From: Minisyncoccia bacterium
Lineage (GTDB): Bacteria; Patescibacteriota; Minisyncoccia; Phycocordibacterales; SBAW01
Direction: 5' to 3'
NCBI GenBank assembly: GCA_049997855.1
Contig: JBEKSG010000003.1
Span: 4,154 to 68,153 of the forward strand
Length of the DNA: 64,000 nucleotides
A model generated the notes under the pieces. It was not told where the DNA came from, made no database searches, and worked only from the letters and a program-made list of their open reading frames with translations. Below are positions 26,644-64,000 of the stretch, one piece after another. A program made the translations under genes and the position numbers. Within the stretch, counting starts at the first letter, position 1. Each line of letters begins with the position of its first letter.

Positions 26644-26680
26644 GTGACAGCGAGCATTTAAAACAAGCTACAATCATCCC

Positions 26681-28926: not shown

Positions 28927-28927
28927 A

Positions 28928-29461
28928 TTACCTGGTGCTATGAACACGGAAACCGCACGCACGGCAAATACCGTTGGTGTGCGAATAGTTGACGAAATAT
29001 TCAAATTTCTCTGCCTTACATACCGGACACATAACGCGCCCGCTCTTTTTTCCGGATTCTTCAATAGTTTTAAACACGCTCCGAACATTGAGCACGTACC
29101 CATTTATCTCATCCCTGTTGCCGAGATAACCTTTCACCCACAGATCGGTCGTGATCCGTCCGGCAGAAGTTTCTTTATACAAAATTTTTCCTTCATTCAG
29201 AAGTTTTTCCCAATACTGCCGTGAGTTACCATATGTTGCGGCAATATCTCGAGAGGACATCAGACGCGCATTAAAGGGAATATAGCCCTGGTGCTCCATG
29301 TGTTTGTATATCTCCTTCAGGCCTTCGGCAAGCAACGCCTCCTTTTGCTTTTTAGTGAGACCTCCTTCATAGCTCAGATCCATGCTCAACGTGCCTCCGC
29401 TGCTTGACGTGGCACTCCAATAAAATTTCAGTGGCGGTTCTTTCATGCGCCCAGTATACAC
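28928..29461 (-). CDS. putative HTH regulator with C-terminal zinc ribbon
   Basis: HTH-like segment (SSRDIAATYGNSRQYW) and C-terminal CPVC...CRAC. Confidence 0.35.
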   Translation of the reverse strand: MYTGRMKEPPLKFYWSATSSSGGTLSMDLSYEGGLTKKQKEALLAEGLKEIYKHMEHQGYIPFNARLMSSRDIAATYGNSRQYWEKLLNEGKILYKETSAGRITTDLWVKGYLGNRDEINGYVLNVRSVFKTIEESGKKSGRVMCPVCKAEKFEYFVNYSHTNGICRACGFRVHSTR

Positions 29462-38339: not shown

Positions 38340-40965
38340 ATGAAGGGCACAGCTGGCACTGCGGGGGGGGGTACGACGAGCACTGTCTGTAGCTCTCCTC
38401 TTTTGTAGTGCTCTCCTTCTTTTCTCTAACGCGATTCCAGCATCTGCCGCCATCTTTACCCGCCCCCTCTACCTCGGCACCAAAGGGAGTGACGTCTCTG
38501 CTCTCCAGCAGTTTCTTAAATCAAAAGGCTACTTTACCTATCCAACCATCACCGGCTACTTTGGTGCCGTTACGGTAAAAGCAGTAGAAGCCTATCAAAA
38601 AGCAAACAACCTTGAGCCGGTAGGCAACGTAGGACCCAAAACCCGTGCACTGCTCAATACCGCGCTCACCACTACTACCCCTGCATCCTCAACCCCCCCA
38701 ACCTCTACCACCACGCCAACCACCAGCACCACAACCATTCCCTGCATCCCTGGTTGGTGCACGCTGCCAGGTTACGCACCAGGGCAGTTTGTTGGGGGAG
38801 GAGGAGCTAATCGTGATATCACGCCACCGAGTGTCTCCCTTACTACACCCACCAGTGGCACCACCGTCGCAGGCCCGGTCACGCTTACCGCCTCTGCTTC
38901 TGACAATGTGGGGGTCACAAGCGTACAGTTCAATGTCGATGGTACAAGTATCGGGTCTCTCTCTTCTGCTCCGTACACCACTACATGGAACAGTGGGAGT
39001 GTTGCTGACGGTTCACATACCCTCACGGTCACAGCTCAAGATGCGGCAGGTAATACCACCACTAGTGCAGGCGTTGCTATTACCGTACGCAATACACCCC
39101 CTATTATTACCGCCATCGCCTCAAGCTCTATTGCTTCCACGACACAGACTATTACGTGGACTACTGATGAGCTTGCTACCTCGACCGTCTACTATGGCAC
39201 TACTACAAGCTATGGTAGTGCTTCATCTTCAGCCATCCTCACCACGAGCCACTCAATTACACTTACCGGTCTCACTGCCTCAACTACGTACAACTTTGTT
39301 GTTACCTCCGCAGACGCTTCAGGCAACATTGCCTCTTCCACCAACCAATCCTTTACCACTGCGGCCTACACCTATTACGTGGATAGTGTAAATGGTAGTG
39401 ATGCGAATCCTGGCACATCTCCGTCCTTGGCACTCAGAAACATCACAGCACTTCCTACCATCACAGCAGGGCAGGGTGTTGGATTGGCGTATGGGTCGCA
39501 TTGGAGACAGCAGCTTACTATCAATGCAGCGAACGCAACTGTTATTGGCTATCCTACAACATACAACTCAACCAATTTACCGATTCTTGATGCGTCAGAT
39601 GTCATACCCAATGCAAATTTTGTCGCGGCTACCGGAGGTAACACCGGCGCGTACTACACAAATAGTGCCCTTTCCTTTCTAAGCGCTGGTTCAGGAGCAG
39701 GATGGATCAATGTGTTTGAGACTGGCGGTCCGGGCGATTCCACTACAGGACGATTTCTGACGAATGTCGTTAGTGAAGCCTTAGTGGCGTCTACACCTTG
39801 TAGTTACTACGTTCCTGGCATATCTCAAGGATCTGCCGTCCCTGCAAGCGGAGTTATTTACCTTCATTCTTGCGATGATAGTTCGCCAATTACTAATGGA
39901 TATTTATATGAATTTAGCAATCGTGCCACCGCCCTTACTATGAACGGCTATGGAGGTAAGGTAAGCAACCTAGAGGGCCGCAAAAATTCCTCTGAAAGCG
40001 GCGCAATTGTTCTTTCCGGAGATGGTAACTCCTACATTGTAAATAACATAATCGCGCGCGATGGGAATGACCATGTGATGTTTGTGCCATCTGGTACGAC
40101 CATATCAAATTCACAATTCATTAATGCCTATTGGGGGCCAAACATCTTTAACAATTTACTGGTCGTTTATGACGCAAATGGAACCGGATTGCCTTTCAGT
40201 TCATCTAACAATATTTATCAACAAGACCAAAATATGAGCGATTCCGTTTATGGCGTTATTGCTTTGATGCAGCACACTAACGGCGGTACGAGTATTGGTA
40301 ACGTGACCTCTACTGGCGATTGGTTCATCGGAAAGAACGGTGCCATTATGACGGCCTTCGGTGTCAGCAATACTCCATCACTTATAATGAACAACAATTA
40401 CGCGAGCCAAGTTGCACATATGGTCTCGGTAACAACGTCGGTGGTTGACAATGGATCACAATTTGTAGCGAGTGGGGGTGATTTTCTAGAATACGCTGCC
40501 GCAAATCAGACAGTCACTCTTAATAACACTCTTATTTGTACAACTAATAGCCCATACGGCGGGCCGTTGAATATTGAGAACGCTGCAAACAGCACGCTTA
40601 ATATTAATGGCGGCGTAACGTATTTAGACACCGGAAAGGGCTGGAACGTAATCTCCGATAACAACGGCGAAGGCACCGCGAACGTGCATCTGAACATCAA
40701 CAACCATATCTTTGGTGGCCCAGGTCAATACTCAATGAACGCGTATGATTTCACTGGTAGCGGTGGAGTATTTACGGGCGGAACGGCAGGAAACGCAAAT
40801 TCCTATTCGACCGGCTTTGGATTCATGATCTTCAACAACGTGCAATATAACAGTCTTGCGGCATGGAAAGCGGCGGTTACCCCGCAAGACGCAGTGGCTG
40901 TCTCTATTGCACCAACTGTAGGGCAAAGTGCCTGCACACTGCCGACTATACCTACAGTAAATTAG
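38340..40965 (+). pseudogene. large cell-surface protein (signal peptide, peptidoglycan-binding domain, T/P-rich linker, Ig-like and FN3-like domains, right-handed beta-helix) disrupted by frameshift in G9 tract
   Basis: The ATG at 38340 is in frame +0 and is followed by a G9 run at 38363..38371. The long ORF continuing to 40965 is in frame +1 and has no start codon of its own until 38908. Removing one G yields MKGTAGTAGGVRRALSVALLFCSALLLFSNAIPASAAIF... (a signal peptide) fused to a PG_binding_1-like segment (LYLGTKGSDVSALQQFLKSKGYF). Confidence 0.6.
38363..38371 (+). repeat. homopolymeric G9 tract at 5' end of surface protein gene
   Basis: Direct count in the sequence (c-ggggggggg-t); candidate slipped-strand phase-variation site. 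Confidence 0.8.
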
Positions 40966-40968
40966 TTT

Positions 40969-41454
40969 TTATTTTTCCACCTCCACACTGCGCTCGCCTT
41001 CTTGCATCCCTTCGGACGAAAAGTTTATCACGAGGTCGGGTTTGGGGAGCTCGCACTCTACCCTCTCGGGCCATTCTACACACACGAGTATTTTTGGGTC
41101 TTGCAAAAACTGCTCCGGCTTAATTGCGGCAAATTGTTTTGGATTTTCTAATCTGTAGGCGTCGATGTGCACTAATTTATTAAAAGGCGTCGCCTTAACA
41201 CCAGGGCTCTTCAAGGCAACGCCTTGGGGGATGTCGTAGCTCTTCATCAACACATACGTGGGGCTTTGCAGCGTTTCGGTAACACCAAGCGCTTTTGCGA
41301 GCGCTTGTACAAACGTGGTTTTGCCCGAGCCCAAATCGCCTCGCAACGCAACAAGCGTTGCGTGCGGCTTGTTTTGCTCAAGCGACTGCAAAATATCCAA
41401 CACTTTTTGTGCAAAAGCATCCACGTTGGCGAGCGGTACCGTCTCCATACTCAT
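40969..41454 (-). CDS. tsaE: tRNA threonylcarbamoyladenosine biosynthesis ATPase TsaE
   Basis: P-loop GDLGSGKTTFV; about 160 aa. Confidence 0.75.
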   Translation of the reverse strand: MSMETVPLANVDAFAQKVLDILQSLEQNKPHATLVALRGDLGSGKTTFVQALAKALGVTETLQSPTYVLMKSYDIPQGVALKSPGVKATPFNKLVHIDAYRLENPKQFAAIKPEQFLQDPKILVCVEWPERVECELPKPDLVINFSSEGMQEGERSVEVEK

Positions 41455-41486
41455 CAGAGTACCAAAAGGCGTTGTACAATACGAGC

Positions 41487-43172
41487 ATGGCCGGACAATT
41501 TGATGAAGCGGAGTCGGCAAAGCGGCTCGACTTTTTGCGCAAACGCGAAGAGGAGGAACTTGCGCAAATGCTCTCGAGCAGATATGGCGTCGAGTATGTC
41601 GACCTTTCGCTTGTGGCTATCAACAGCGACGCTCTGCGCATTATTAGCGAGGAAGAGAGCCGCGCCGTGGAGGCGGTGGCATTTGGACGTGTTGGTAAAA
41701 GGCTCTCGGTTGCCGTGCGCGCGCCCGGCAAAAACGAAGTTAAGGCGCTGATGCAAAAACTCACCGAGCAAGGCTACGAAGTCACATTATTTATTTGCTC
41801 CGAAGAAAGTTTGAAGCGTGCCTATGCGCGCTATGCCGACCTCTCCTATGCCACCGAGTCAAAAGCGGGCGTCTTTGAACTTTCCAACCAGGAAGTTGAG
41901 GACCTTGCCGAAAAAGTTAAAACGCTCGAGGACATCGGTGCGCTCATCAACGATGCAATAGAGATGAAGCGTGCCTATCGCATCACGCGAATCCTCGAAG
42001 TTATTTTGGCAGGCGGTCTCTCAACAGGCGCCTCGGACATCCACTTTGAGCCCGAGGAGGTGGCCGTGCGTTTGCGGTACCGACTCGACGGCGTGCTTGT
42101 TGATGTGCTCACCTTTGACCACGAAACCTATCGGCTTACGCTCTCACGCCTCAAACTGCTCTCGGGATTAAAGCTCAACGTGACCGACGAGGCGCAAGAC
42201 GGCCGCTTTAGCATAAAAATAAAAGGCGATGAGATAGAGTTGCGCACCTCGATACTCCCTGGCAACTATGCCGAAACGCTGGTGCTCCGTATTTTAAATC
42301 CTAAATCGATCGGCGTGCCGCTCGAAGATCTCGGCATCGAAGAAAAATTGCGTCTGCGGATTGAAAAAGAGATTGCAAAACCCAACGGCATGATACTCAC
42401 CACCGGCCCAACTGGCAGCGGCAAAACCACCACGCTCTACGCGTTTTTGCGCAAGATAAACGACCCGGGCACCAAGATTATTACCATCGAGGACCCGGTG
42501 GAGTATCACCTGCCCGGCATCGTGCAAACGCAGGTTGATAAAAAAACGTACACTTTTGCGGCAGGCTTGCGCTCGGCCCTGCGACAAGACCCCGACATCA
42601 TCATGGTCGGCGAGATCCGCGACGACGAAGTGGCCGCGACCGCCATCAACGCGGCACTTACCGGACACCTCGTGTTCTCAACGCTCCACACCAACGATGC
42701 GGCCGGGGCTTTCCCCCGCCTCATCGACCTCGGTGTGTCCGAAAAAGTGTTGAGCTCGTCCATCAATGTTGCTATCGCTCAGCGCCTTTTGCGCAAACTC
42801 TGCAGTGCGTGCAAAGTACAACGCGCGCCAACGGGAGATGAGCAAGCAATAATCGACCGCACGATTGCAGGCATTGTCGATAGATCGTTCGTGCCCGCTA
42901 CCACCAACGTGCTGTGGGGCGCGTTGCCCAAAGGATGCCCCGAGTGTCACGGTCGCGGATACAAAGGCCGTATCGGCATCTTTGAGGCAATATTTATGGA
43001 CGCAAAAATTGAGGAAGTACTACGCACCAAGCCAAGCGAGCGCGAGGTGGCCGAGGCCGCCAAGCCGCAAGCAATACCCACCATGGAACAAGACGGTGTC
43101 TTAAAGGTCCTCCGCGGCGTGACTTCATTAGAAGAGCTCGGCCGCGTTGTTGATTTAACGGCAAAAATATAG
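41487..43172 (+). CDS. pilB: type IV pilus/type II secretion assembly ATPase (PilB/GspE family)
   Basis: Walker A (TGPTGSGKTTT), Asp box, His box and a tetracysteine zinc motif (CSAC...CPEC); the start is placed at MAGQFDEA. Confidence 0.85.
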   Translation: MAGQFDEAESAKRLDFLRKREEEELAQMLSSRYGVEYVDLSLVAINSDALRIISEEESRAVEAVAFGRVGKRLSVAVRAPGKNEVKALMQKLTEQGYEVTLFICSEESLKRAYARYADLSYATESKAGVFELSNQEVEDLAEKVKTLEDIGALINDAIEMKRAYRITRILEVILAGGLSTGASDIHFEPEEVAVRLRYRLDGVLVDVLTFDHETYRLTLSRLKLLSGLKLNVTDEAQDGRFSIKIKGDEIELRTSILPGNYAETLVLRILNPKSIGVPLEDLGIEEKLRLRIEKEIAKPNGMILTTGPTGSGKTTTLYAFLRKINDPGTKIITIEDPVEYHLPGIVQTQVDKKTYTFAAGLRSALRQDPDIIMVGEIRDDEVAATAINAALTGHLVFSTLHTNDAAGAFPRLIDLGVSEKVLSSSINVAIAQRLLRKLCSACKVQRAPTGDEQAIIDRTIAGIVDRSFVPATTNVLWGALPKGCPECHGRGYKGRIGIFEAIFMDAKIEEVLRTKPSEREVAEAAKPQAIPTMEQDGVLKVLRGVTSLEELGRVVDLTAKI

Positions 43173-49416: not shown

Positions 49417-51516
49417 TCACGACAACTTATTCTCCAATCGAAATTTGGTAGGACGAATTTTAATTGCAAGTTGTAGATTCAATTCTTTCGCCAAAGCAAA
49501 ACAAAAATGACAAAGCCGCTTCGAGTCAAAATTAGTGAGTAGCCATAAGCCGTTTTTCAATTTTTTTCTAAGTTTTGCTTCATCACTAGATTCGAGAACG
49601 TCTTTTATTAATAACTGTCTGTCACCCCCATCGATAAAACTAAGGGTGCTTTCGGTCAAGACAAATGTTTTTGAATACAATTCAACTAGGATAACAAACA
49701 GTTCAGACCACGTCCCCCCTTCTTTGAATTTTTGGCCACCTAACGAATAACTTTCTGGCTTCGTGTATCTAAGATCACCATACTTTGCATAATTACTTGT
49801 GTTTAGTTCAGATTTATATTCTAGCTTTTCACCAAAAGAAGAGTGACGTAATTTATCTAGAGAAGACGGAGATTTAAAGAAATATTGATAATTGTTGAAA
49901 GTTGGATCTTGTCGTTGAGTCGCCATTGCAACACTAAGAAGATTCATGACTCTCTCGCTGTTTTTCTCAAATTCTTTTTTTATCTTTTCTAACGAACCCT
50001 CTTTTGTAGCCATTTCTTCGAGAATAATACCTTCTGGTATTAACACCCACAGCTTAAAGAGTGTCAACAAATGCAAAAGACCGGTACTAAACAAACTTAA
50101 TTCATCTAAGGAATAATTAGGTCGATTTTTCTTCAGTTTCTGCTTGAACCATTCGAGAAGTTTGAAACTTATCAACAAAGAGTGCGCACTAATTTGATTA
50201 TGAAAAATAGTCGTGTAATACGCATTATATATTTCAGCTTTTTTATTCTTTGCCTCAGATGGCCTCTCAAGAAAAAGTGACATGTACGCTTGGGCAGCTT
50301 TTTCAAGATCAATGATTTTTTCTTTTTTTACATTTCCATCGTTAGTGTATAATCCCCTTTTCCTTTGGTAAAAATATCCAAGGGAATTAAATTGGGCCTC
50401 GAGTTGTTTTTGTATATCATCTTCACTAATTAGGTCTCTATTGTTTACCGTCGATTGTGTGTTTGATGCTTTGATAATTGCCTCTTTTAGTTTTGGATCG
50501 GAAGATTCAATTATCCGCACCAACACGTGTCCGGTATTTTCTTCAATTTTCCCAAGTTGATAAACGTCTCTTATTGTACTCGCAGTTTGGCAACCGTTGA
50601 TTAAGGATGGATTTGTTAACTCAACAATTTCATTACCAACCTTGATTTGATAATTATCGCAGAGAATGGTAATTCCATTATTTAAGTAGATAAATGTTTC
50701 TATTGCTTCCTTGTCTAACAAAGTTTTCTTTATTTGATCGTTTATTTTATTTTCACCAAGGTACCCGCGGACATTAGCGTTAAATATGTTTGGTTTGTCC
50801 TCGACTAATTTAGCAATCTCGAATACGTCGACACGTACAACCTTTCCTTTTGAATGATTAATATCCGGTAGATCTAAAAAAGTTTTTGCACCAGCGCCCG
50901 TATCTTTAACAACTTTGATAGATACCTTACCCACAGGTTTCGTTGAGGGAGGTAATATCAATTCTGCTACGTCCTTTTCAGTAAGAATTTCATAGTTGAC
51001 CTGCTTATCGCTTTCATTTGAAAATCTTTCTAATTCCTCGTAGAGCGAAGCTTGCGGTCTTTTGCCATTAGTTAGAAAGAGAAGTTTTATTTTATCGATT
51101 TCCCCTGATTGAAAGGAGTTTCTGGCCGATTCTATACGAGGTTTGAGTTTAGGATTCAAAACATTTGTGGGAGCATCACCTAATACATAATTCCGAACAG
51201 TTTCGACCATTAAAGTTTTAGCTGTTTCGTCTAGCGAATTATTTGGGTTCTGTGCAAAATATTTTGACTGCACAATATAAAGAATATTATTTCCATTCTC
51301 GTCGACCTGGATGAAAATAGCATCAATCCCCTTATCGTTGCCGCCATCGGTTATCGCTTCTTCAACTTCTATCTCATCGAGCCCGTAAATATTTTGAAGA
51401 CAAAAAATTATGAAAGCTGTTGACGGCTGACAACTAAATTCTTTTGCCGTCTCTTGAACTCTTGCAGCTAGAGTGCTTTGAATACGTGGGTTTGACATAT
51501 TTTTAATAATACTCAA
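49417..51516 (-). CDS. AIPR-family abortive infection protein
   Basis: 699 aa with an AIPR-like core (IYLNNGITILCDNY...INGCQT); markedly AT-rich; begins 8 nt after the dnaN stop. Confidence 0.75.
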   Translation of the reverse strand: MSIIKNMSNPRIQSTLAARVQETAKEFSCQPSTAFIIFCLQNIYGLDEIEVEEAITDGGNDKGIDAIFIQVDENGNNILYIVQSKYFAQNPNNSLDETAKTLMVETVRNYVLGDAPTNVLNPKLKPRIESARNSFQSGEIDKIKLLFLTNGKRPQASLYEELERFSNESDKQVNYEILTEKDVAELILPPSTKPVGKVSIKVVKDTGAGAKTFLDLPDINHSKGKVVRVDVFEIAKLVEDKPNIFNANVRGYLGENKINDQIKKTLLDKEAIETFIYLNNGITILCDNYQIKVGNEIVELTNPSLINGCQTASTIRDVYQLGKIEENTGHVLVRIIESSDPKLKEAIIKASNTQSTVNNRDLISEDDIQKQLEAQFNSLGYFYQRKRGLYTNDGNVKKEKIIDLEKAAQAYMSLFLERPSEAKNKKAEIYNAYYTTIFHNQISAHSLLISFKLLEWFKQKLKKNRPNYSLDELSLFSTGLLHLLTLFKLWVLIPEGIILEEMATKEGSLEKIKKEFEKNSERVMNLLSVAMATQRQDPTFNNYQYFFKSPSSLDKLRHSSFGEKLEYKSELNTSNYAKYGDLRYTKPESYSLGGQKFKEGGTWSELFVILVELYSKTFVLTESTLSFIDGGDRQLLIKDVLESSDEAKLRKKLKNGLWLLTNFDSKRLCHFCFALAKELNLQLAIKIRPTKFRLENKLS

Positions 51517-52621: not shown

Positions 52622-52832
52622 ATGTTCTTTATAAAAAATCTATTACTACTATTAAGGGTGTGAATTGGTGGAAAAGTGACGGTAAGGATTGCGTTGTAAG
52701 AGTTTGTTGTTGGAGCGATGTTTGCATACGCGGTGGATAACTAAGCGCTCATATGTTTGGTATGTATTGATTGGTTGATTTTACACACTTGTCCACAACA
52801 CTGTCCCCTTCTATTACTACCACTTATCCACT
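52622..52832. promoter_or_regulatory. dnaA-dnaN intergenic region with DnaA boxes (oriC component)
   Basis: DnaA-box-like 9-mers: tggataac (52734..), ttgtccaca (52789..) and ttatccac (52824..). Confidence 0.5.
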
Positions 52833-54176
52833 TCATTTCAACATGAGACGGATTTGGTGCATTTCTTGATTGAGCGCGCTGTCGGTGTGTAGGTCGGTTT
52901 TTATTTTTTCGCACGAATGAATGACGGTGGTGTGGTCGCGGCCGCCAAGCTTCTCGCCAATGGTTGGAAAGGAGATGTGGAAGTCCTCGCGTAGGAGATA
53001 CATGATGACCTGGCGCGGCCGTACCACCTCTTTGCGGCGGGTTTTTTCATAAATGCTGTTTTCCTCGACACCATAAAAGCCGGAGATTGCTTTGACTACA
53101 TCTTGCACCGACACGGCTTTTTTAGTCGAACTGCTCGCGCTCCGGAGGAGCGCTTTAGCGTCGTTAATAGTGAGAGGTTCACCGCGCATCTCAAACTGTA
53201 TAAGGAGCATGTTGAGCGCGCCCTCAAGCTCGCGGACATTGCCCTCAATAGTGGCTGCTAAGTACTCAAGCACCTCGTCGGGGAGCATTACATTATGGAC
53301 GGCGGCTTTTGCGCGCACGATGGCGAGGCGCGACTGGTGGTCGGGCGGCGTTACTGCGACGACCATCCCCGCCGCAAGGCGCGACTTCAGTCTGTCCTCG
53401 AGGTTTTGGATCACATTTGGGTGTTGGTCGGACGAAAAAACAAGTTGCTTGTTGTTGTCGTGGAGATAGTTAAAGAGATGAAAAAATTCCTCTTTTATTT
53501 TATCGCGACCCGCCAAAAACTGCACGTCGTCCATGATGAGGAGGTCATACTGGCGGTACCGCTCTTTAAAGTTTTGCACTTTGTCCGCTTGGAGGCTCGA
53601 TACGTAATCCATCGAAAACTTTTCCGACGTGACATAAAACACCTTACGCTCAGGCGTTTGTGTCCGAAAATAATTGCCGACAGCTTGTATAAGGTGCGTT
53701 TTGCCGAGGCCGGTTGGCCCGTATACCAAAAGCGGGTTGTACGCGATGCCCGGTTTACGGATAACCGCCTGCGCCGCGGCGTGTGCAAGCTCATTAAACG
53801 GCCCAACCACAAATGATTGCAGGGTAAAGCGCGGGTTTAAGTTTGTTTTGGCGTGCACGGTTTCGAGAGGCAGCTCCGCAGACGCGGGGGGTACGATGTG
53901 CGGCGGTTCCTCGACCGTTTTTTTGACTCCACGCGATATGACATACTCGACCGCGCGCACGCTGTCGGAGAGACCGCGCAAAGAGCGTAAAATGTCTTTG
54001 TGGAATTTTGTTGAAAGCCAGTCGCGGGCAAACTGGCTCGGCACGCCGAGCGCTACGGTGCCGTCCTCGACGCGCACGATATGCGTGTCTTTAAACCACG
54101 TATTAAAATTGGGTTTTGAAATAGTCAGTTCCAGTTCCACCAATGCATTTTCCCAGAGCTCTTTCGTGGTAGTCAT
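52833..54176 (-). CDS. dnaA: chromosomal replication initiator DnaA
   Basis: AAA+ motifs ([10 protein letters not shown]) and a C-terminal DNA-binding domain. Confidence 0.9.
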
Positions 54177-54276
54177 AGTACGTTTCTCCCAGCATACGCG
54201 TGCGCGGCCTCTCCGTCAAAAACGGCATACCAGTGCATAAGTTGTGGAGAAACTGTGGATACAGTATATTTGACGC
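54177..54276. promoter_or_regulatory. rpmH-dnaA divergent intergenic region with DnaA boxes
   Basis: ttgtggaga (54242..) and tgtggatac (54255..). Confidence 0.5.
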
Positions 54277-54414
54277 ATGTCACAAACCTACCAGCCTAAA
54301 AAGCGTAAACGCGCGCGTGCACACGGTTTTCTTACAAGGAGCAGTACGCCCGGTGGGCGCGCAACGCTTAAGCGTCGCCTTCACAAAAGGCGCGCCCGCA
54401 AATCAGTAGTATAA
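54277..54414 (+). CDS. rpmH: 50S ribosomal protein L34
   Basis: Hand translation [45 protein letters not shown]. Confidence 0.85.
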
Positions 54415-55528: not shown

Positions 55529-56002
55529 ATGGACGCCCAAGAACTCACCGATTTTGTCTCCGAGCTTCTTGCCGCGCTTAGCGCCTCTTTTGAGAGTGTA
55601 ACCGTTACCACAGGCCACCGTACAGTTGTTGCTGTCAAAACGGCCGAGCCCGAGCGCCTGATAGGCCCGCACGGCGAGCATGTGCGCGCGCTTACCCTGC
55701 TTGCGCGGCGCATAGTCGAACAAAAGTATGGCGAGGATGCCTCAAATTTCCTTATCGACATCAACGGCTACCAGGAGGCCCAGCTTGAGGGCGTGCGCCA
55801 ACAGGCGCGTATGCTGGCACAGCGCGCCCGCCTATTTAAACACGAGGTGGAGATGCCGCCCATGAGCTCATACGAGCGTTTGGTGATACACGAGCTTTTT
55901 GCCGATGATCCGGAGATAAACACGGAGTCGGCAGGCGACGGCAAGTTTCGCCATATAGTGCTCAAATATAACAGCGGCTCGCCTTCTATTGAGCAAGCCT
56001 AA
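55529..56002 (+). CDS. Jag/KhpB-family RNA-binding protein (KH + R3H)
   Basis: R3H-like C-terminus; the conserved yidC-jag context. Confidence 0.7.
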   Translation: MDAQELTDFVSELLAALSASFESVTVTTGHRTVVAVKTAEPERLIGPHGEHVRALTLLARRIVEQKYGEDASNFLIDINGYQEAQLEGVRQQARMLAQRARLFKHEVEMPPMSSYERLVIHELFADDPEINTESAGDGKFRHIVLKYNSGSPSIEQA

Positions 56003-57227
56003 CACCCCACAACTCGCGGGTGCCTTTGGTAGTAAAGGAGAGGTAGTGTTCGTCCGGCGAAAGCGCCATTTCTAAAATATCGGAAGCAACACCGCCGTCT
56101 GTACCTCCCGGCGAGGCAACAACGTTTTCAGCGGCAAGATTTGTATATATCCTAAAAATATTATCAGCAGAACTGGCAAGCCCTTGATGCCAAAGGTCAA
56201 GGTAATTTGCCGGGACGGATTGTATAGGTGCCGCGCAGTACATCACGGTATTTGTAATGTTGTCCCAAATACATTGTTCAGGAGACGGATTTATAGGAAG
56301 AAGCGCATTAAGTCCGCTTTTCACATCATGTAAATATGAGGTTTTGGTTGTGCCGTCAGATATCTGATATAGGAGCATAGAGAAAGCAGAATTAGCCGTT
56401 GCCGTCAGCCCCTCTGCATATACCAGTGGCGTTACTGCCCCGCTTTTTGCATCGACTGAAAATACTATACCCGGTACTCCCACTGACAATTTGCTTTGCA
56501 CTAAAAGAGTGCTTGGTGCCGGCCAGGAGACAAGCACTTGTGCAAGCGGAAGGGAAAAAAGTTTTTTAGCGCCGATGCCGTCGGATTTTGCAATGTAGCC
56601 GCTTGAGCCGTCTGATGTTTTGAGCAAGTAGGCAACGTTTTTGCCGTCAGGAGAGGCGGCGAGGTCGATGATATTGTCAGGCAAAAATTGTATGCGCGTT
56701 GCCGCAAGTTGAGTGCTCGTGGTCGCTGCGGGCAATCCGAGATATACGCTTTTAACCGTTGCTCCGTCGGTGTCGATATATTGCAAAATCGCGGCATTGC
56801 CCTGCTCAAGCCACACCACCTGCTCAATGCCCGGGATCGTTACATCAGAGACAACACGCGGCACGGCGCCCGGCACATCAAGAGGCGCATCATACACGTG
56901 GCCATCCTCCTGGTTTACATATCGCGCGAGCGTGGTGGTCGGGTGCAATGTTTGTATAAGCGTCGCTCCCGCAATTGGGCCGCCATTTATTTCAAATATT
57001 TTTTGCGTTGCCGATTGCGAAGCTGGCAGCGTGCCATTGGTTGCGGTGTTGGTGTTGGTGTTTGTGTTAGGCGTAGCCGTTGTAGTGTTGCTTGTCGAAG
57101 TGCCAAATAATGCGGTAGTTGATATAGTTGATGTGGCAGAAGAGCGGAAAAAGAAAAACCAAATAATTAACACCGAGAATGTTACAATCCCCACAAGAAT
57201 TAAACTTAATTTAAGTGTTTGCGTCAT
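55986..57227 (-). CDS. membrane-anchored beta-propeller-like protein (T4SS-cluster associated)
   Basis: N-terminal TM helix, a T/N-rich linker and a repeated beta-strand region. Confidence 0.35.
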   Translation of the reverse strand: MTQTLKLSLILVGIVTFSVLIIWFFFFRSSATSTISTTALFGTSTSNTTTATPNTNTNTNTATNGTLPASQSATQKIFEINGGPIAGATLIQTLHPTTTLARYVNQEDGHVYDAPLDVPGAVPRVVSDVTIPGIEQVVWLEQGNAAILQYIDTDGATVKSVYLGLPAATTSTQLAATRIQFLPDNIIDLAASPDGKNVAYLLKTSDGSSGYIAKSDGIGAKKLFSLPLAQVLVSWPAPSTLLVQSKLSVGVPGIVFSVDAKSGAVTPLVYAEGLTATANSAFSMLLYQISDGTTKTSYLHDVKSGLNALLPINPSPEQCIWDNITNTVMYCAAPIQSVPANYLDLWHQGLASSADNIFRIYTNLAAENVVASPGGTDGGVASDILEMALSPDEHYLSFTTKGTRELWGVRLAQ

Positions 57228-58249
57228 TGTTTATAGCAATATTGTTGCCAAATCCACGGTGCCCATTTATATCCCGCGTTTGCGCCTGTAGCATCTGTAG
57301 CATTTGTGCAGCTTTCTGGTGTTGTATAAGCTGGCAAATAACAATAAGCTCCACTGCCAGAACCAATACTTGAACCCTGAGTCCAGACTGCTCCTTGTCC
57401 TAAATTCGAACATGCTTGCGCAGCTGCTTCGTCAGAGTTTCGCAAACATGTAGTAGTCCATATGCCGGCATTGGTTATGTTACCGCAGTACTGAGCCGTA
57501 CCACAACCTTCCGGAAAATCGCCGCAAGGTGGTGCTGTAGCTTGCGCAGGGTTGTTAGAGTTATTGTTTGAGGTGTTTGAGTTTGCCGTAACTGTACAAA
57601 GTCCTTGTTGTTGCATGTCTTGCGTGCACGGATTTAAATTAAAACTAAGCAATTTAGGATTAATAGTGTTAAGGATAAGCCACGAAGCTGCGATGAGCAC
57701 TATTCCCCACAATGCAGCTTGTGCTCTTTTAAGACCTTCTTGTTTTGTCTTAATTGTGCTGGAAACCATGTACTCGATGCCGCCGACGGTGAGCATGAGT
57801 ACTGCAAGCAATGCGCCGACACTGATGAGGATAGTAAAAATGGCGTTCACAATAGTCGGCAGATTGCCAGGATTGGTAAGATCGGGGTTGGTAGTAAGCC
57901 CTGGTATAGGCTCAAGCGCCTGGTATGGCAGGTTAGTACCAGTATTTGCAGGCGCTGTTGCTGCCGGAGTTGCTGGAGCTGTCGTCTCTCCTCCTGTAGT
58001 TTGAAATTGATTCATAGGATAGCTGGTCACGGTAGGACTCGCTCCGTTAAGATTTGCTCCTCCTGTCGCAGAGTTAACGCCAGCTGTCGGCGCCGTGTAG
58101 GAATTTCCGCTGGTATCAATTGGTTGAGATGTCAAAGTAGGCGCAGCAGTAGTGTTGACCGGCGCTAGTGTGCCGTATTGTGCATTCGCAACGTGCGGAA
58201 TGCCCAGTATTACGCTAAAAAAGATTAGAAAGAGTAGATTTTTTTTCAT
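57224..58249 (-). CDS. pilin-like protein with two-TM hairpin and Cys-rich C-terminal domain (possible VirB2/TrbC analogue)
   Basis: Signal peptide, low-complexity region, two adjacent TM helices and a Cys-rich C-terminus. Confidence 0.3.
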   Translation of the reverse strand: MKKNLLFLIFFSVILGIPHVANAQYGTLAPVNTTAAPTLTSQPIDTSGNSYTAPTAGVNSATGGANLNGASPTVTSYPMNQFQTTGGETTAPATPAATAPANTGTNLPYQALEPIPGLTTNPDLTNPGNLPTIVNAIFTILISVGALLAVLMLTVGGIEYMVSSTIKTKQEGLKRAQAALWGIVLIAASWLILNTINPKLLSFNLNPCTQDMQQQGLCTVTANSNTSNNNSNNPAQATAPPCGDFPEGCGTAQYCGNITNAGIWTTTCLRNSDEAAAQACSNLGQGAVWTQGSSIGSGSGAYCYLPAYTTPESCTNATDATGANAGYKWAPWIWQQYCYKQ

Positions 58250-59280
58250 AGTCCAAAGAGGCCGCTGCTCGACGATTGCGTGCCAAAGATTATTTGGAGC
58301 GCGGCATTAGCTGCTTGTACCAGCTTGTCGGTATCGTTGTTTTGGAGTGACACGCCAAGCGTGGCGCTGCCGCTCCCCGAGCCGGATTGGAGCAAAGTGA
58401 GCTCTCCGTTTTCGGCGTTTGGCCCGGTGGTGTCGTTGCCGTTGAGCGTCCATGCATAAGTGAGCGCACCGTTTACCAAACTGCTGTTAGAAAAAAAGTA
58501 TGGTACGGCCTGCACGGTGAGCTCGTTGCCGTTGAGCGAAATCCCGGCGGGCAGTGCCGAGTCAAAAATGATTCCGCGCAGGGGGTCTTTGTCGTAGAGT
58601 ACGAGCTCCGGGTCGGTGGCAGGTATGACCACCGAGCCTGTGCCCACTTTGTTGGCGCCGTAATACACGTCTACCGACACGTCCTCCTCTTTTTGGAGTT
58701 GGCTGCCGGTAAAGGTGAGAGAGTTTTGACCAAGTCCCGACTGATCTGGCAGAGGGTCGCTGTCGAGCGTCCATTGAAACGAGAGAGCGCTTACAGAAAA
58801 GCTGCTGCCATTAACCGCGATGCTCGGGAACGCGACCACTTTAACATCCGAGCCACCGCTGTAGAGTGCTTTGCCTTTGTAGAGCGGCGGCACGGTAGTA
58901 TCCGCCTCCCATACGAGATTGATTGATGAAGGGATAAACGTCCAACTGTTGGTGAGCGTGCCCTGTGTTGCAGAATTAACCGTTACTTTTATCTGTGTCT
59001 CGGTGCCGATTGACCCCGTAGTAAAAGTAAAGTCGCGCTGGCCAACGCCTTGTGACACTACCGTGCCGTTTTGGCTCCAGGTGATGGTTGAATTGCCGAC
59101 AAAGGTGCCAACGCCTTGCACCTCGATGGTTACTTGCGTATTTGGTCCCGGTGTTTCGGGCGAGACGACATATTGTATAGGCGCAGGCACAACGCCCGAT
59201 GTTTGGGCGTGTGCCGCTCCCCCCGCACAAAGCAATGCGGCGCAGAGCAAAAAAAGACACTTAAGCGGCTTTTTGTACAT
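58246..59280 (-). CDS. secreted beta-rich protein (T4SS-cluster associated)
   Basis: Signal peptide MYKKPLKCLFLLCAALLCAGGAAHA. Confidence 0.35.
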   Translation of the reverse strand: MYKKPLKCLFLLCAALLCAGGAAHAQTSGVVPAPIQYVVSPETPGPNTQVTIEVQGVGTFVGNSTITWSQNGTVVSQGVGQRDFTFTTGSIGTETQIKVTVNSATQGTLTNSWTFIPSSINLVWEADTTVPPLYKGKALYSGGSDVKVVAFPSIAVNGSSFSVSALSFQWTLDSDPLPDQSGLGQNSLTFTGSQLQKEEDVSVDVYYGANKVGTGSVVIPATDPELVLYDKDPLRGIIFDSALPAGISLNGNELTVQAVPYFFSNSSLVNGALTYAWTLNGNDTTGPNAENGELTLLQSGSGSGSATLGVSLQNNDTDKLVQAANAALQIIFGTQSSSSGLFGL

Positions 59281-59815
59281 AGGGTTTAAAATTGTCGTTG
59301 GCGGCCCTCGTAATGCCGTCAAAGTTTTTCGTTTGGAGTGTTGGGCGTGTGTGCTCTTGCGGAGTTTCACTGTCGTTTGCGGGAGCCTGTGCGATGGTTA
59401 CCGGTTTTGTGCTCAGTGTTGTGTTTTTTATGCCTTGCACGGTTCCTGTTACATTACCGCTTGCAGCAGCGGTAGCAGTCTGCACCAGTCCAATGGCTTT
59501 CCCCGCGAGACCTCCTTCTTTGCTCATATCCTGTACAATCCCCGCGATAACAATGCCTAACCAAAATGGTAAAAAGTCGAGACCGGGGATAAGGCTGCCA
59601 ATAAATCCTGCCGGACCCCATGTGGGATGATACATGCCGTTTGTTACTAAAAGCAGCATGAGCCCGCTACCCATAGTGACATTGATACAAAAACTAAATA
59701 CCAAAGCGAGCGCAATACCGACGCCGGGGATTAACACAAGTCCTGCCGAGACACCGCACGTAAGGCCTGTGATGAAAAGAGCGTAGAGAAGAAGAAAAAT
59801 ATACAAAGGCTTCAT
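59261..59815 (-). CDS. polytopic membrane protein (T4SS-cluster associated)
   Basis: Five TM helices; start placed at MKPLYIFLLL. Confidence 0.3.
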   Translation of the reverse strand: MKPLYIFLLLYALFITGLTCGVSAGLVLIPGVGIALALVFSFCINVTMGSGLMLLLVTNGMYHPTWGPAGFIGSLIPGLDFLPFWLGIVIAGIVQDMSKEGGLAGKAIGLVQTATAAASGNVTGTVQGIKNTTLSTKPVTIAQAPANDSETPQEHTRPTLQTKNFDGITRAANDNFKPYVQKAA

Positions 59816-59819
59816 AGCG

Positions 59820-61679
59820 TTATTGTACCGCGTTTGGCGGAGTTCCCGATTGTGCATCGGCGAGGTCTGCGCGCTGTTTGCGCAAGGCCAGTACCTGGCT
59901 CGGGTCGGAGGTAATAATCTGATCTTCGGTGTAAGAGGCTATTACTTTGATGGCCACATGTTTGAGCCCGGCAAAAAATATTCCCTCCCCCACGTCGCTC
60001 TCGAGGAGCAAAAACTTTTCTTCGTCCGAGAGGTTAAAGGTTTTTTGCAGATTGTCGATGGTGGTCGGCGATTGCTTGAGCAAAATTTGTATCGATGAGT
60101 TGGTAATCATCGGCAAACCGTACGGCGACTTTAAAAAGTCATCGACGTCTTGGGTGATGGTTGCAAGGCCGAGATAATATTTACGGCCGCGCTTTGCCAT
60201 GCTGTAAAGAAAGCTCGCCGTGTCGTCGCTTTTCATCATCCACCACGCCTCGTCAATAACCAGAAGGCGCTTTTTAAGATTTTTGCGGACCGTGTTCCAT
60301 ATAAAGTGCGTGATGATGTACATGGCCACAGGCTTCAAGTCATCCTCCATGTCGCGCACCGAGAAGACGACGAACTTTTTGTTGATATCGACGTTGGTTG
60401 GTTGGTTGATAAATCCGCTCCACGTGCCCTTGGTATATTTTGAGAGGCGTTGTACCAAACTCTCACTCCCCTCCATTCCGGCCAACACAAGCTCAAAGTC
60501 GGAGAGGAGCGGCGGCTCTATCTCGGCAAAGTTGCTGTCGACCGTAATATCCTTGAGCGCGTACGTTTCGGTGATAGCGCGGTCGATGATGGCATCTTCC
60601 TCGGGCGTGAGACCACCAAGCATGATGCGAAAGAGGCCCACGAGCGCCACGATGTTGCTGCGCAAGATGTCGGCCGCGCTTTCGTCCTCGCGCGGTGGCG
60701 CCAAGTCAAACGGGTTAATGTGGTGTTCGGAGTTGAGAGAAATGTTAAAGTAGCGCCCGCCGACCGCTTGCGCCAAAAACTCGTACTCGCGCTCCGGATC
60801 GATAACGATAACCTCGGTATCAAACATAAGCGTGCGCAAAATCTCAAGCTTGGTCGCGTAGCTTTTGCCGGAGCCCGACTTGGCAAAAATGACCGAGTTG
60901 TAGTTTTCCAAGCTAAACCGGTCAAACAACACCAGGCTGGCATTGTGGCGGTTAACGCCGTAGAGGATGCCTTTGTCGCTCGTGAGGTCGAACGAAACAA
61001 ACGGGAAGATTGAAGAGAGGGGCGAGGAATTTAATTTTGAGTTGACGTTGAGTTCGTCGAGACCGATGGGCAACACGCTTTTAAAACCCTGCTCCTGCTG
61101 GAAGAGCGCCGGTTTGACATACACAAGCCTGCTCTCGAGCATCGACTTAATCTCGCTCTCGGCCTTGTCCAAATCCTCGGCGGTTTTGTCATAGATGGTG
61201 ATATATACGCCGACATCGAAAAGTTTTTCCTGCGCCTGTTGGAGCTGGTCGCGCAAGTTCTCGAGGTCTTGGTAGGCGGTGTCGAGCACCGGGTCGCGCA
61301 CCATGCCCTTTTCTTCTCGCACCATAATCTGGCTTTGCACCTCGGCCACCTTTTTTTGGAATTTTTTGAGCATGTCTGCCGAATCGAGCGGATGGATAAA
61401 AATGGAAATATCAAGCACGCGGTCGAGATTGATGACAGGCGCAAACCAGCTGTCGGTGAGGATGCGCGGGTATGACATGACAAAAAACGTGCGCGCGATT
61501 TTGTCGCCCAGGTTTATCTCGCGCGGCGTTATCTTAAGCGCGGAGGGCGCGATGACATCTTGAAGCTCGAGCACGCCCTCTTTGTATATTTGCTCGGGCA
61601 AAATGGGCGCCACCGGCACGGCGGCCGGAGTTTGTTTTGTCTTTAAAAAGTCGAGGAGTGCCATAGTGTTATTGGGCAA
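59820..61679 (-). CDS. VirB4/TraC-family type IV secretion ATPase
   Basis: Walker A (FAKSGSGKS), Walker B (LVIDEAW) and a Gram-positive-type VirB4 N-terminal domain. Confidence 0.85.
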   Translation of the reverse strand: MPNNTMALLDFLKTKQTPAAVPVAPILPEQIYKEGVLELQDVIAPSALKITPREINLGDKIARTFFVMSYPRILTDSWFAPVINLDRVLDISIFIHPLDSADMLKKFQKKVAEVQSQIMVREEKGMVRDPVLDTAYQDLENLRDQLQQAQEKLFDVGVYITIYDKTAEDLDKAESEIKSMLESRLVYVKPALFQQEQGFKSVLPIGLDELNVNSKLNSSPLSSIFPFVSFDLTSDKGILYGVNRHNASLVLFDRFSLENYNSVIFAKSGSGKSYATKLEILRTLMFDTEVIVIDPEREYEFLAQAVGGRYFNISLNSEHHINPFDLAPPREDESAADILRSNIVALVGLFRIMLGGLTPEEDAIIDRAITETYALKDITVDSNFAEIEPPLLSDFELVLAGMEGSESLVQRLSKYTKGTWSGFINQPTNVDINKKFVVFSVRDMEDDLKPVAMYIITHFIWNTVRKNLKKRLLVIDEAWWMMKSDDTASFLYSMAKRGRKYYLGLATITQDVDDFLKSPYGLPMITNSSIQILLKQSPTTIDNLQKTFNLSDEEKFLLLESDVGEGIFFAGLKHVAIKVIASYTEDQIITSDPSQVLALRKQRADLADAQSGTPPNAVQ

Positions 61680-62337
61680 TCTGTGTTACCTGCAAAGGCT
61701 TTTCGAGCTCGCCCGGATTAAAGAGCTTGTAAAACAACTCTATCACCTCCTCGGTGCCGAGGTTCACGATGCGCACGCCGGTGCGCACCAGCCCTTGCTC
61801 GACAACCGAGACGCGCTGCTCAAGCTGGGTGCGATATTGCTCAAACTGCTCGTTCGTAAGCGTGGCTGAGCCGCCCGAACCGGAAGGAAACAGTGAGCCA
61901 ATCGCGCCGCCGATGCCGCCTCCGCGCACCATAAGCGCCGGGTCGTACGGCACCACGATAAAAAAGTTTTTGGTCATGATATTTGCGCGCGAGGTAAAGT
62001 CTTTGATAAACGCCATATACTCGCGTATTTGTATCTTCATCAAATCGTCGAGCTCTTGCGCATAGCGGTCTTCGAGGAGTGCGATGTACGGGCGGATGTC
62101 GAGGTCGCGGCTTTCGATAAAAAATTGCACGGTAAACTCGAGCGAGTTTAAAAAGTTTTGAAACTGTCCGATAATCGCCTGCTGTTCGTCGGCGCCCTTG
62201 AGCGCGAGGTTGATGGATGATGCCATGAGTATCGAGCGCAGAGAGCCATCTTTAAGTATGACAATACCGTCGCGTACCTCCTTGATGGGTACAAATTCCT
62301 GTGTGGCCTGCGCTTTTATCGGGATGTTGGTTGGCAT
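61669..62337 (-). CDS. T4SS-associated protein resembling VirB4 N-terminal region
   Basis: Pattern IKEVRDGIVILKDGSLRSILMASSINLALKGADEQQAII; overlaps the virB4 start. Confidence 0.35.
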   Translation of the reverse strand: MPTNIPIKAQATQEFVPIKEVRDGIVILKDGSLRSILMASSINLALKGADEQQAIIGQFQNFLNSLEFTVQFFIESRDLDIRPYIALLEDRYAQELDDLMKIQIREYMAFIKDFTSRANIMTKNFFIVVPYDPALMVRGGGIGGAIGSLFPSGSGGSATLTNEQFEQYRTQLEQRVSVVEQGLVRTGVRIVNLGTEEVIELFYKLFNPGELEKPLQVTQIAQ

Positions 62338-62348
62338 ATCTTTGGCAC

Positions 62349-62795
62349 TTATATTTCAAAACCCGTGGGTGTGGTATCGACCACACCCATCGTGCTCCTG
62401 TCTTTTATATTGAGCGACCAAGCCAAATCTTTGAGCTTGCTGTTGGAAAGTTTAGGCACGCCGAGCGTGGTCATAGCCGCGGCGGGAGCCTGCGCGACCG
62501 CCGAGGGAGTTTTTGCGCTGTGCTGCCTCCACAAATAGAGCTTGTGGCCAAAAAAGTAGCCAAACGCATGTTCGAGTACCACGATAAACGGCCGCCCATT
62601 AACCTTGTAAAATGCAAGCGCGAAACCGAGCGCGATAAAAGGGAGCATACAAAGCACCGCGATGTAGAGCGGCAGCAGGGTAAAAAACAAAAGGCATATG
62701 CCGCCCGCGCCCGCGAGATAAATAAACTGCTTGAAAGTAAGCGGCCCAAATATCTTGTCTTCGATTTCGATAAATTGAGGGACCTGATAGCGCAT
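62349..62795 (-). CDS. PrgI-family (VirB3-like) T4SS membrane protein
   Basis: N-terminus QFIEIEDKIFGPLTFKQFIYLAGAGG followed by two TM helices. Confidence 0.5.
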   Translation of the reverse strand: MRYQVPQFIEIEDKIFGPLTFKQFIYLAGAGGICLLFFTLLPLYIAVLCMLPFIALGFALAFYKVNGRPFIVVLEHAFGYFFGHKLYLWRQHSAKTPSAVAQAPAAAMTTLGVPKLSNSKLKDLAWSLNIKDRSTMGVVDTTPTGFEI

Positions 62796-62836
62796 TAGCT
62801 ATAGTATATCGCAAAAATATCGCCACTCTCCCCTTT

Positions 62837-63505
62837 TTAGTCGATAGGTTCGCGATACGGATCGGCTTTGTATGCGGGAGCCGGATTTATTTTGGGCGCA
62901 ACCGGCGCAGGCATTGCTCCCGTATCAACTTTTTTAACTTCGCCCTCGGGTGATTTAGCGACCGGCGGCAAACTCACCGTCGGCTCGCTCAACATCACAT
63001 CGGCTTCGGGCATTTGAGGTGCAGGAGTAGCTGCTTTTGCCGGAGCCGAAGTTGCAGGCGCATCAATTTGCATATCAGTGGAGAGAGGAGCGGGCGCAGG
63101 GGTTGGTGCAATTGGAGCGCTTGGAGCACCGGCAGGAGCTGCCGCAGAAGCTGCCATAGCCGAAGACACGATGACAGACTTTCCGTTATCGGTTTTTTTC
63201 ATTGCATCGCGGATTTTATCGAGCAGTAATAGATTAATATCTGCGACAATGGCATTGCTTTTTGTCATATCAACCTCCAATGTGTCGCTAATATTTTGCG
63301 GTAACTCTTGCAGCTGGCTAATACCAATCATGGCGGCGGCCACTTCGCTCTCCAACTCGCCAATTTGGTCTATGTGCAACTGATGTTTGGTGCCGATTTG
63401 CTGTATAACAGCATCCATCTGCGGGCTGTAGAGCAATGCTTTAACCTCTGGCGGCAAAGCGTCTATAAGCTTTTGTATTTCGTCTGAATTTGTGGAGTCA
63501 GCCAT
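62837..63505 (-). CDS. hypothetical protein with Pro/Ala-rich C-terminus
   Basis: 222 aa. Confidence 0.3.
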   Translation of the reverse strand: MADSTNSDEIQKLIDALPPEVKALLYSPQMDAVIQQIGTKHQLHIDQIGELESEVAAAMIGISQLQELPQNISDTLEVDMTKSNAIVADINLLLLDKIRDAMKKTDNGKSVIVSSAMAASAAAPAGAPSAPIAPTPAPAPLSTDMQIDAPATSAPAKAATPAPQMPEADVMLSEPTVSLPPVAKSPEGEVKKVDTGAMPAPVAPKINPAPAYKADPYREPID

Positions 63506-63517
63506 ATGATCATTATA

Positions 63518-63988
63518 CTACTTCCCTTCAACTTTAAACTCACCCTCATTGTTGGTGCCGCCGACATCTTTAGGGATGTCTTTAACTTGTTCTTCGAGCT
63601 TGGTAATTTTCTCGAGAGCTTTTTTAAGTTGTTTGGCGGCTAGGCCCGCTCGTGTCCTTTCCGCTCTTTCTGCGGGATCATTCATGTTGAGCGTTTTATC
63701 ATCTCGAATTTTTTCCTGCTCTTCTAGGGAGTCTTCAATTTCTTTCTTCATCTTTTTCGCCGAACCTAAATTGACATTGAAAGTTGTGCCATGAACTGGC
63801 TTAACGGCGGAACCAAGCGTTTTTAGATCGACATGGAGCGTTTGGAGCTGTGTATGGAGCTCTCCTAGTTTTTTAAGTTGCTCCTTTGACTCGCCCAAGG
63901 GCGCTTTTGTGGACGTCTCGTTCCACTTACGTTCGAGTGTCTCCTTTTCCGTTCTGTTGTATTTAAGACTTTCCTTAATTGCCTTCAT
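63518..63988 (-). CDS. coiled-coil protein (may extend beyond window)
   Basis: Charged heptad-like sequence. Confidence 0.3.
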   Translation of the reverse strand: MKAIKESLKYNRTEKETLERKWNETSTKAPLGESKEQLKKLGELHTQLQTLHVDLKTLGSAVKPVHGTTFNVNLGSAKKMKKEIEDSLEEQEKIRDDKTLNMNDPAERAERTRAGLAAKQLKKALEKITKLEEQVKDIPKDVGGTNNEGEFKVEGK

Positions 63989-64000
63989 TTGTTTGTCGGA

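Follow-up and report, generated by a model that had tools for sequence, protein, structure and literature searches.

The end of a 64,000-nt stretch of contig JBEKSG010000003.1 from a Minisyncoccia bacterium (assembly GCA_049997855.1; the whole stretch is referred to below as the window) carries a block of genes on the minus strand (55986-63988). This block probably encodes a chromosomal, vertically inherited type IV secretion system (T4SS) of the Patescibacteria clade, which this Paceibacteria (Parcubacteria/Minisyncoccia) bacterium is likely to use non-conjugatively, in contact with a host cell. The kind of system, its lack of a relaxase and its position near dnaA have already been published (PMC10633639, PMC12102498), and the locus is a typical example that adds no new kind of system. 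The remaining interest lies in six conserved orphan components and an unusually constrained VirB4.

Within the window the block consists of nine open reading frames (ORFs), spaced by 4-41 nt or overlapping by 4-20 nt, an operon-like arrangement. A scan for promoters and terminators returned counts not above those in shuffled sequence. The region past the window edge was read on a public contig (L001) that is identical to the window over 12332 of 12332 overlapping bases. On this contig close-packed genes on the same strand for proteins of 666 and 298 amino acids (aa) lie upstream of a gene for a VirB6-like protein, and beyond them come ksgA and uvrD. The full module spans about 13 kb and about 12 genes, with eight complete genes and the tail of a ninth inside the window. 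An earlier account of the window based on its letters (the sequence-only reading) had described nine tightly packed or overlapping minus-strand genes and interpreted them as a Gram-positive-type T4SS-like module at oriC. All nine ORFs were found at the coordinates given here, and the family matches support the proposed type.

The virB4 gene (59820-61679) encodes 619 aa when read from a TTG at 61679, and 614 aa (59820-61664) from an ATG five codons downstream, which is the start taken by gene callers. In hidden Markov model (HMM) searches the protein matched the CD1110 equivalog NF045971 at 396 bits (cut-off 325) over model positions 185-733, with further matches to TIGR00929 and P-loop_TraG. 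Both the Walker A (AKSGSGKS) and Walker B (LLVIDEAWW) motifs are present. The protein is 27% identical to residues 228-772 of PrgJ from pCF10. Outside Patescibacteria its closest relatives were encoded by monoderm plasmids (29-36% identity), and all of the best plasmid matches were monoderm. It lacks the N-terminal ~185-225 residues of a full-length VirB4, the part that TrsD resembles.

A TrsD-like protein of 222 aa, a stand-alone homolog of the VirB4 N-terminal domain, is encoded immediately upstream (61669-62337). A scan of one genome per species gave 585 relatives, from which the best 80 loci were used; the TrsD-like gene adjoins virB4 in 78 of them, with ~60% identity. The protein matched the TrsD/TraD model NF041427 (E 3.7e-9, under the model cut-off of 200 bits), aligned with positions 101-233 of VirB4_plasma and 2-116 of CD1110, and has a precomputed match to the TraC-like family PF26593. 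BLASTP found no match between it and the N-terminus of PrgJ, the relationship being visible at the HMM level only. Judged from these alignments, the TrsD-like gene and virB4 together appear to behave as a split VirB4. The next gene (62349-62795) encodes a small PrgI/VirB3-like membrane protein of 148 aa that matched PF12666 at 42.9 bits (gathering cut-off 27) and was found in 75 of the 80 loci with ~51% identity. The CD1110-type VirB4, the PF12666 protein and the monoderm best plasmid matches place the predicted system in the MPF-FATA (monoderm) class. These results uphold the calls of a PrgI-like (VirB3-type) protein, a VirB4-N-like protein of 222 aa and a VirB4 with intact Walker motifs that the sequence-only reading had made.

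That reading had also listed a separate 156-aa coiled-coil protein and had found no VirB6 homologue. Neither statement survived extension beyond the window. The reading frame of the coiled-coil ORF (63518-64000) is still open at base 64000, and its full gene (6316-8820 on L001, reaching the equivalent of about 66022) encodes a polytopic membrane protein of 834 aa, of which the ORF is the C-terminal, cytoplasmic coiled-coil tail. The missing VirB6 appears to be an edge artefact, because the gene cut by the window end encodes a putative VirB6-like protein. A signal peptide opens the 834-aa protein, at least five segments between residues 159 and 449 are strongly hydrophobic, and the C-terminal tail is long and Lys/Glu-rich; its gene lies two positions upstream of that for PrgI. 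TrbL/VirB6 (PF04610) was matched by 7 of 45 orthologs, with a best E of 4.8e-5. When aligned by hhalign, the ortholog profile matched pCF10 PrgH (E 0.005 over 113 columns) and the VirB6-like Orf15 of Tn916 (E 3e-4), and both alignments fell on a conserved 'R..V.L.FLMI.SP.AF' membrane segment. We therefore assign the protein, with moderate confidence, as a putative extended VirB6-like protein. Extended VirB6 proteins, such as TcpH of pCW3 (the class is treated in PMC12857230), likewise combine an N-terminal polytopic VirB6-like region with a large hydrophilic C-terminal domain. The resemblance lies in this layout; sequence similarity is marginal, and the tail of the 834-aa protein forms a coiled coil rich in Lys and Glu.

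Downstream of virB4 lie the genes for the predicted envelope and surface parts. The first (59261-59815, or from an alternative start at 59857) encodes a polytopic membrane protein of 184 aa (198 aa from the alternative start), and it overlaps the following gene by 20 nt. The sequence-only reading counted five transmembrane (TM) segments. The polytopic character stands and the count is less firm, with two strong segments flagged by a crude hydropathy scan and some four to five visible by eye. The following gene (58246-59280; 78 of 80 loci) encodes a 344-aa extracellular protein, described earlier as secreted and beta-rich. An AlphaFold2 model built with 57 homologs (pLDDT 85.9) agrees with that description, comprising an N-terminal helix, which would be a signal or anchor, and three Ig/FnIII-like beta-sandwiches; Foldseek returned tandem Ig/FnIII proteins only. 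A pooled Pfam scan of the orthologs of this protein and of the 666-aa and 298-aa proteins gave Ig-fold matches (BiPBP_C in 18 members, Ig_3 in 8), which we infer to belong to the Ig protein family. Among 120 listed homologs of the Ig protein, 11 were 451-585 aa long, and the three of these that were read (P0202, P0226 and P0238) are single-chain fusions of the upstream polytopic protein with the Ig protein. The 184-aa protein aligns with the N-terminal half of the fused homologs (for example P0226, E 1e-9). These fusions indicate that the two proteins act together as a single unit, in which an Ig stalk stands on a membrane base.

The VirB2-like T4SS pilin gene (57224-58249), present in one copy in the window, encodes 341 aa matching T4SS_pilin (PF18895) at 34.7 bits against a cut-off of 26.6, in line with the pilin-like two-TM protein noted earlier. 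From its N-terminus the protein has a signal peptide and a low-complexity region, then a two-TM core (about residues 129-196) and, at the C-terminus, an ectodomain that is variable and rich in Cys. Only the two-helix core is conserved (29% coverage); the orthologs are between 210 and 462 aa long and differ in their number of Cys. The last gene of the module (55986-57227; 69 of 80 loci) encodes a 413-aa protein with an N-terminal TM segment. The membrane-anchored beta-propeller proposed for it by the sequence-only reading has weaker support: the window protein itself had no Pfam match, the ortholog profile matched 12 TolB chains (best E 2e-4), and 6 of 46 orthologs carried PD40 repeats. It is probably a PD40/TolB-type propeller on the strength of these profile matches.

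Three further proteins are without a family. The gene between those for VirB6 and PrgI (62837-63505), syntenic in 50 loci, encodes a cytoplasmic Pro/Ala-rich protein of 222 aa with neither a TM segment nor a signal peptide. Its N-terminal helical domain of ~100 aa is conserved, the Pro/Ala-rich linker after it varies, and the DPYREP motif at the C-terminus (window 62837-62863) is almost unchanged across 38 orthologs; searches for the protein gave no Pfam, PDB or other family match. DPYREP could serve as a docking motif. The idea that it is a shared secretion tag was rejected, as no other ORF of the window bears it. The 666-aa and 298-aa proteins are anchored and helical. AlphaFold2 modelled the 666-aa protein poorly (mean pLDDT 62.5), the confident part being a C-terminal helical bundle (residues 497-665); Foldseek returned nothing from PDB at E ≤ 0.001, and profile comparisons with PDB and with the PrgK hydrolase were negative. 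Since none of its acidic residues is invariant, a VirB1-like hydrolase role for this protein was dropped. For the 298-aa protein, searches of Pfam, NCBIfam and PDB gave no match, and its profile showed no VirB8 similarity when compared with the VirB8-like PrgL (E 0.11 over 14 columns). Upstream of uvrD, at 1-241 of L001 and ~3 kb from the first gene of the module, lies a gene for a LysM and Peptidase_M23 protein (347 aa). This protein could be a VirB1-like peptidoglycan-remodelling partner of the sort that the 2025 survey associates with virB4 in Paceibacteria (PMC12102498).

Six conserved genes of the module are thus without a recognised T4SS counterpart: those for the polytopic protein, the triple-Ig protein, the TolB-like propeller, the 666-aa and 298-aa proteins and the DPYREP-tailed protein. 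The suggestion that unannotated components are candidates for new T4SS parts holds to the extent that several of them are conserved and lack a family. The novelty that it implied does not hold, as the system has been published (PMC10633639, PMC12102498, PMC12857230).

Among the 120 VirB4 homologs listed, identity was 88-100% and every named one came from Paceibacterota, Minisyncoccia, Nomurabacteria or Patescibacteria. The best 80 VirB4 loci of the genome scan (76-93% identity) belonged to Nomura-, Adler-, Kaiser-, Campbell-, Taylor-, Zambryskibacteria and similar groups. In all 45 loci with full flanks the gene order was collinear, always between ksgA and jag-yidC-rnpA-dnaA-dnaN. The common order runs uvrD, ksgA, 298-aa, 666-aa, VirB6-like, Pro/Ala-rich, PrgI, TrsD, VirB4, (membrane protein), Ig protein, pilin and propeller, followed by jag, yidC and rnpA on the opposite strand and then dnaA and dnaN; in some loci the pilin and propeller genes have exchanged positions.

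Median identities to the window proteins were determined across loci L002-L081. VirB4 was the most conserved (78.9%), followed by TrsD (60.5%), DnaA (54.6%), UvrD (51.6%), PrgI (50.7%), KsgA (46.3%), DnaN (39.6%) and YidC (35.8%), and the extracellular and membrane parts of the module had medians of 26-37%. In each of 60 genomes compared, the identity of VirB4 was higher than that of DnaA, a gap that is inflated because the loci were picked by VirB4 similarity, its size still being notable. The GC content of the module is unremarkable, and megablast of its DNA against 72,556 plasmids gave no match. The fixed position, the fixed order, the unremarkable GC content and the lack of a plasmid DNA match argue against a mobile element. 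These comparisons indicate that the module is a vertically inherited core system.

The same data bear on whether the block is instead an ordinary conjugative element (an integrative and conjugative element, an integrated plasmid or a decaying remnant) that exports DNA and has its relaxase and coupling protein outside the window. Such an element would fit the membership of VirB4 in the CD1110 conjugation family, the homology of components to conjugation genes of the pCF10/pGO1 type, and the presence of a serine integrase elsewhere in the window (21086-22777). The integrase, however, is 33 kb distant, and the flanks are ksgA and uvrD on one side and jag-yidC-rnpA-dnaA on the other. Position and order are constant in the full-flank loci, which come from 80 species-level genomes, and neither the conservation of VirB4 beyond that of DnaA nor the GC content and plasmid comparison suits such an element. 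No relaxase or type IV coupling protein (T4CP) was found in 20 scanned ORFs of the window, a set that takes in all ORFs of at least 250 aa not belonging to the module, apart from the independently identified dnaA and dnaN. Nor was either found among the genes called in the 8.3 kb past the window edge on L001. Furthermore, relaxases occur in only 103 of 3,035 Patescibacteria genomes (PMC12102498). This explanation is already largely refuted, and we regard it as highly improbable. The sequence-only reading had noted no relaxase or VirD4 protein in the window, which holds for all the ORFs scanned, and had named their presence just beyond it as the check on a non-conjugative role. Housekeeping genes lie there instead, and non-conjugative use is supported as probable, with no relaxase or coupling protein adjacent.

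If the module is the vertically inherited, host-directed system that we favor, its operation can be sketched from the papers cited and from what is established for T4SSs in general. Docked on VirB6 in the single membrane, VirB3, TrsD and VirB4 would spend ATP on drawing the pilin out of the membrane and assembling it into a tube or pilus of the VirB2 type. Wall-spanning or tip parts, such as VirB5 and VirB7-10 supply in diderms, would be formed by the Ig, propeller and helical proteins, and the fast-evolving extracellular proteins would build the host-contact parts. The machine would run with no linked coupling protein or relaxase, and for that reason would not be conjugating. It would serve contact-dependent exchange with the host cell on which these reduced-genome bacteria depend.

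Several observations weigh against this picture. The 834-aa protein itself had no Pfam match, and none to TrbL at E ≤ 1, so that its VirB6 assignment draws on weak profile alignments and on its orthologs. The block yielded neither a VirB8-like nor a VirB1-like component, and the selection of loci by VirB4 similarity, described above, reduces the weight of the VirB4-DnaA comparison. For any Paceibacteria, pilus formation, the substrate and the direction of transport are matters of deduction. Furthermore, a T4CP may exist elsewhere in the genome, and independence from one is unproven because VirD4/T4CP homologs occur in most Patescibacteria genomes, mostly unlinked to virB4 (PMC12102498).

What passes through the machine is viewed differently by two rival explanations. 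In the first, a relaxase-free T4SS works in reverse, in the manner of ComB or Ced, and takes up host DNA or RNA as a supply of nucleotides. Patescibacteria of this kind lack nucleotide synthesis, which would favor such import, as would the absence of a relaxase or T4CP nearby. VirB4 weakly matched the DNA-import ATPases CedB (NF041017, 34.8 bits) and CedD (19 bits), although these scores are far under the cut-offs of 700 and 600 bits. A 2026 preprint on a cultivated Minisyncoccota strain describes uptake of host RNA and tubular structures, possibly T4SS pili, that reach the host (bioRxiv 10.64898/2026.06.21.733656), and T4SS genes of the class ABY1 are found together with comF, recG and radA (PMC12102498). 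Here, however, competence genes are not next to the block, no ComB/VirB7-10 homologs were found, and no nucleic-acid-binding domain was found in the block. In addition, loss of comEC ends transformation in S. epibionticum and spares viability, whereas the T4SS is essential (2025 review, PMC12857230), so that any import would have to be ComEC-independent. Taken as the whole explanation, import appears unlikely.

In the second, the module is an effector-export or adhesion organelle, in which the VirB2-type pilus and the Ig and propeller ectodomains mainly attach the cell to the host, or inject envelope-opening proteins, and no nucleic acid is carried. The pilin ectodomain is hypervariable, and the module adds the triple-Ig protein and the probable propeller along with extracellular parts that evolve fast (26-33% identity), the pattern expected of host-contact surfaces. 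Protein export was also suggested as an alternative role by Wang et al. (PMC10633639). No candidate effector or secretion signal was identified, however, DPYREP being borne by one module protein only in the window. T4SSs that translocate effectors usually need a T4CP, the exceptions being Ptl and Brucella VirB (PMC12102498, PMC12857230), and adhesion is already provided by type IV pili in these bacteria, a PilB gene being present at 41295-43172. We consider this explanation, too, rather improbable on its own. The functional guesses of the sequence-only reading, uptake and epibiotic interaction, match proposals made in PMC10633639, PMC12102498 and PMC12857230.

A bolder and quite tentative possibility is that the six orphan proteins form a wall-spanning, host-penetrating apparatus specific to Paceibacteria, which would replace VirB5, VirB7-10 and VirB8 and, with the exceptionally conserved split VirB4, import macromolecules such as RNA from the host cytoplasm. 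If so, the module would be a feeding organelle and not a secretion system. Much of bacterial diversity belongs to Patescibacteria, and no T4SS other than theirs has been shown to be essential for the growth of its owner. For Paceibacteria, the locus shows a module of about 12 genes in fixed order beside oriC, with a VirB4 motor more conserved than DnaA. Half of the module proteins, all of them syntenic, are without a family; structural and genetic studies of how these cells draw on their hosts could start from them.

The position of the module beside oriC is supported by three features: DnaA-box sites, a skew minimum, and rpmH-rnpA-yidC-jag beside dnaA-dnaN. The probable oriC region (52732-54262) comprises dnaA (52833-54176, minus strand) and flanking clusters of DnaA-box-like 9-mers with one mismatch, at 52732, 52789 and 52824 in the dnaA-dnaN spacer and at 54243 and 54254 in the dnaA-rpmH spacer. 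The whole window holds 21 such sites against 10.7 expected, and the minimum of the cumulative GC skew falls at about 50-56 kb. Between dnaA and the module the plus strand carries rpmH (54277-54410), rnpA, yidC and jag (ending at 56002); rpmH (L34), absent from the ORF lists because of its shortness, was read straight from the sequence. Directly downstream of dnaN lies a gene for an abortive-infection phage-resistance (AIPR) protein of 699 aa (49417-51516) in the stretch of lowest GC in the window (0.40 against ~0.50). Its appearance is that of a defence gene gained by horizontal transfer and placed next to the origin genes.

Other genes of the window lie farther from the module. The large serine integrase (PHROG integrase, E 1.5e-65) overlaps the end of tRNA-Arg(gcg) (21026-21098). 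After it come a fragmentary ORF that resembles a replication initiator and several others without a Pfam or PHROG family; 21026-29103 may be an integrated element. A 712-aa ORF (13858-15996), flanked by tRNA-Val and tRNA-Arg genes, has no Pfam family and matched a PHROG 'virion structural protein' (E 9e-14). The PilB-like protein is a type IV pilus/type II secretion ATPase (T2SSE, E 2.6e-111), and a 685-aa Ig-domain surface protein is encoded at 38908-40965. With these genes the genome also carries type IV pilus machinery, which is implicated in host adhesion in Saccharibacteria.

Compared with MPF-FATA conjugative systems (pCF10 Prg/Pcf, pGO1 Trs and Tn916), the module shares a CD1110-family VirB4 (27% identical to PrgJ), a PrgI-like VirB3 encoded upstream and, with pGO1, a TrsD-like protein. 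The prgH-prgI-prgJ order of pCF10 is also retained, VirB6-like before VirB3 before VirB4, except that here two genes are interposed, the Pro/Ala-rich one after VirB6 and the TrsD-like one after VirB3. In contrast to those systems, the module has no T4CP (PcfC), relaxase, PrgK-type hydrolase, PrgL/VirB8-like protein or LPXTG adhesins. It does have a VirB2-like pilin, which monoderm conjugation systems lack, its VirB4 is without the N-terminal domain, and it is chromosomal and, by the comparisons above, vertically inherited. The ComB system of H. pylori and the archaeal Ced system are likewise VirB4-driven and relaxase-free, and ComB also has VirB2, VirB3 and VirB6 homologs. ComB retains a VirB7-10 outer-membrane core. 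The module resembles both as a VirB4-driven machine without a relaxase, and differs in its low score with the CedB model and in that homologs of their partner proteins were not found.

The closest known systems are those of Patescibacteria themselves. A survey of 3,035 Patescibacteria genomes (Quinonero-Coronel et al. 2025, PMC12102498) describes a monophyletic VirB4 clade nested in MPF-FATA, in which TrsD is the most abundant associated component, PrgI/VirB3, PF18895 VirB2-like pilins and some VirB6 homologs are found, and VirB8 is almost absent. In S. epibionticum, transposon sequencing showed that the T4SS and pilins are essential for epibiotic growth, and neither a coupling protein nor a relaxase could be recognised in the cluster (SEML1_0006-0019; Wang et al. 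2023, PMC10633639); an unlinked T4CP homolog is not essential (summarised in PMC12102498). The module differs from these systems in having no peptidase or lysozyme genes downstream of virB4, and, in place of the six-gene pilin array of Saccharimonadia, it has a single pilin gene with a large variable ectodomain (PMC12102498, PMC10633639). Among the T4SS components named in the sections consulted of these two papers, there is no Ig-like, propeller-like, 666-aa, 298-aa or Pro/Ala-rich gene. In the remaining respects the likeness is close. The module has a VirB4 whose named close homologs all come from Patescibacteria, a TrsD-like gene beside virB4, PrgI/VirB3, a putative VirB6 and a PF18895 pilin, with no relaxase or linked T4CP nearby, and it occupies the same chromosomal setting, near dnaA, dnaN, rnpA, rpmH and ksgA, that the survey reports for T4SS clusters of Paceibacteria (PMC12102498).

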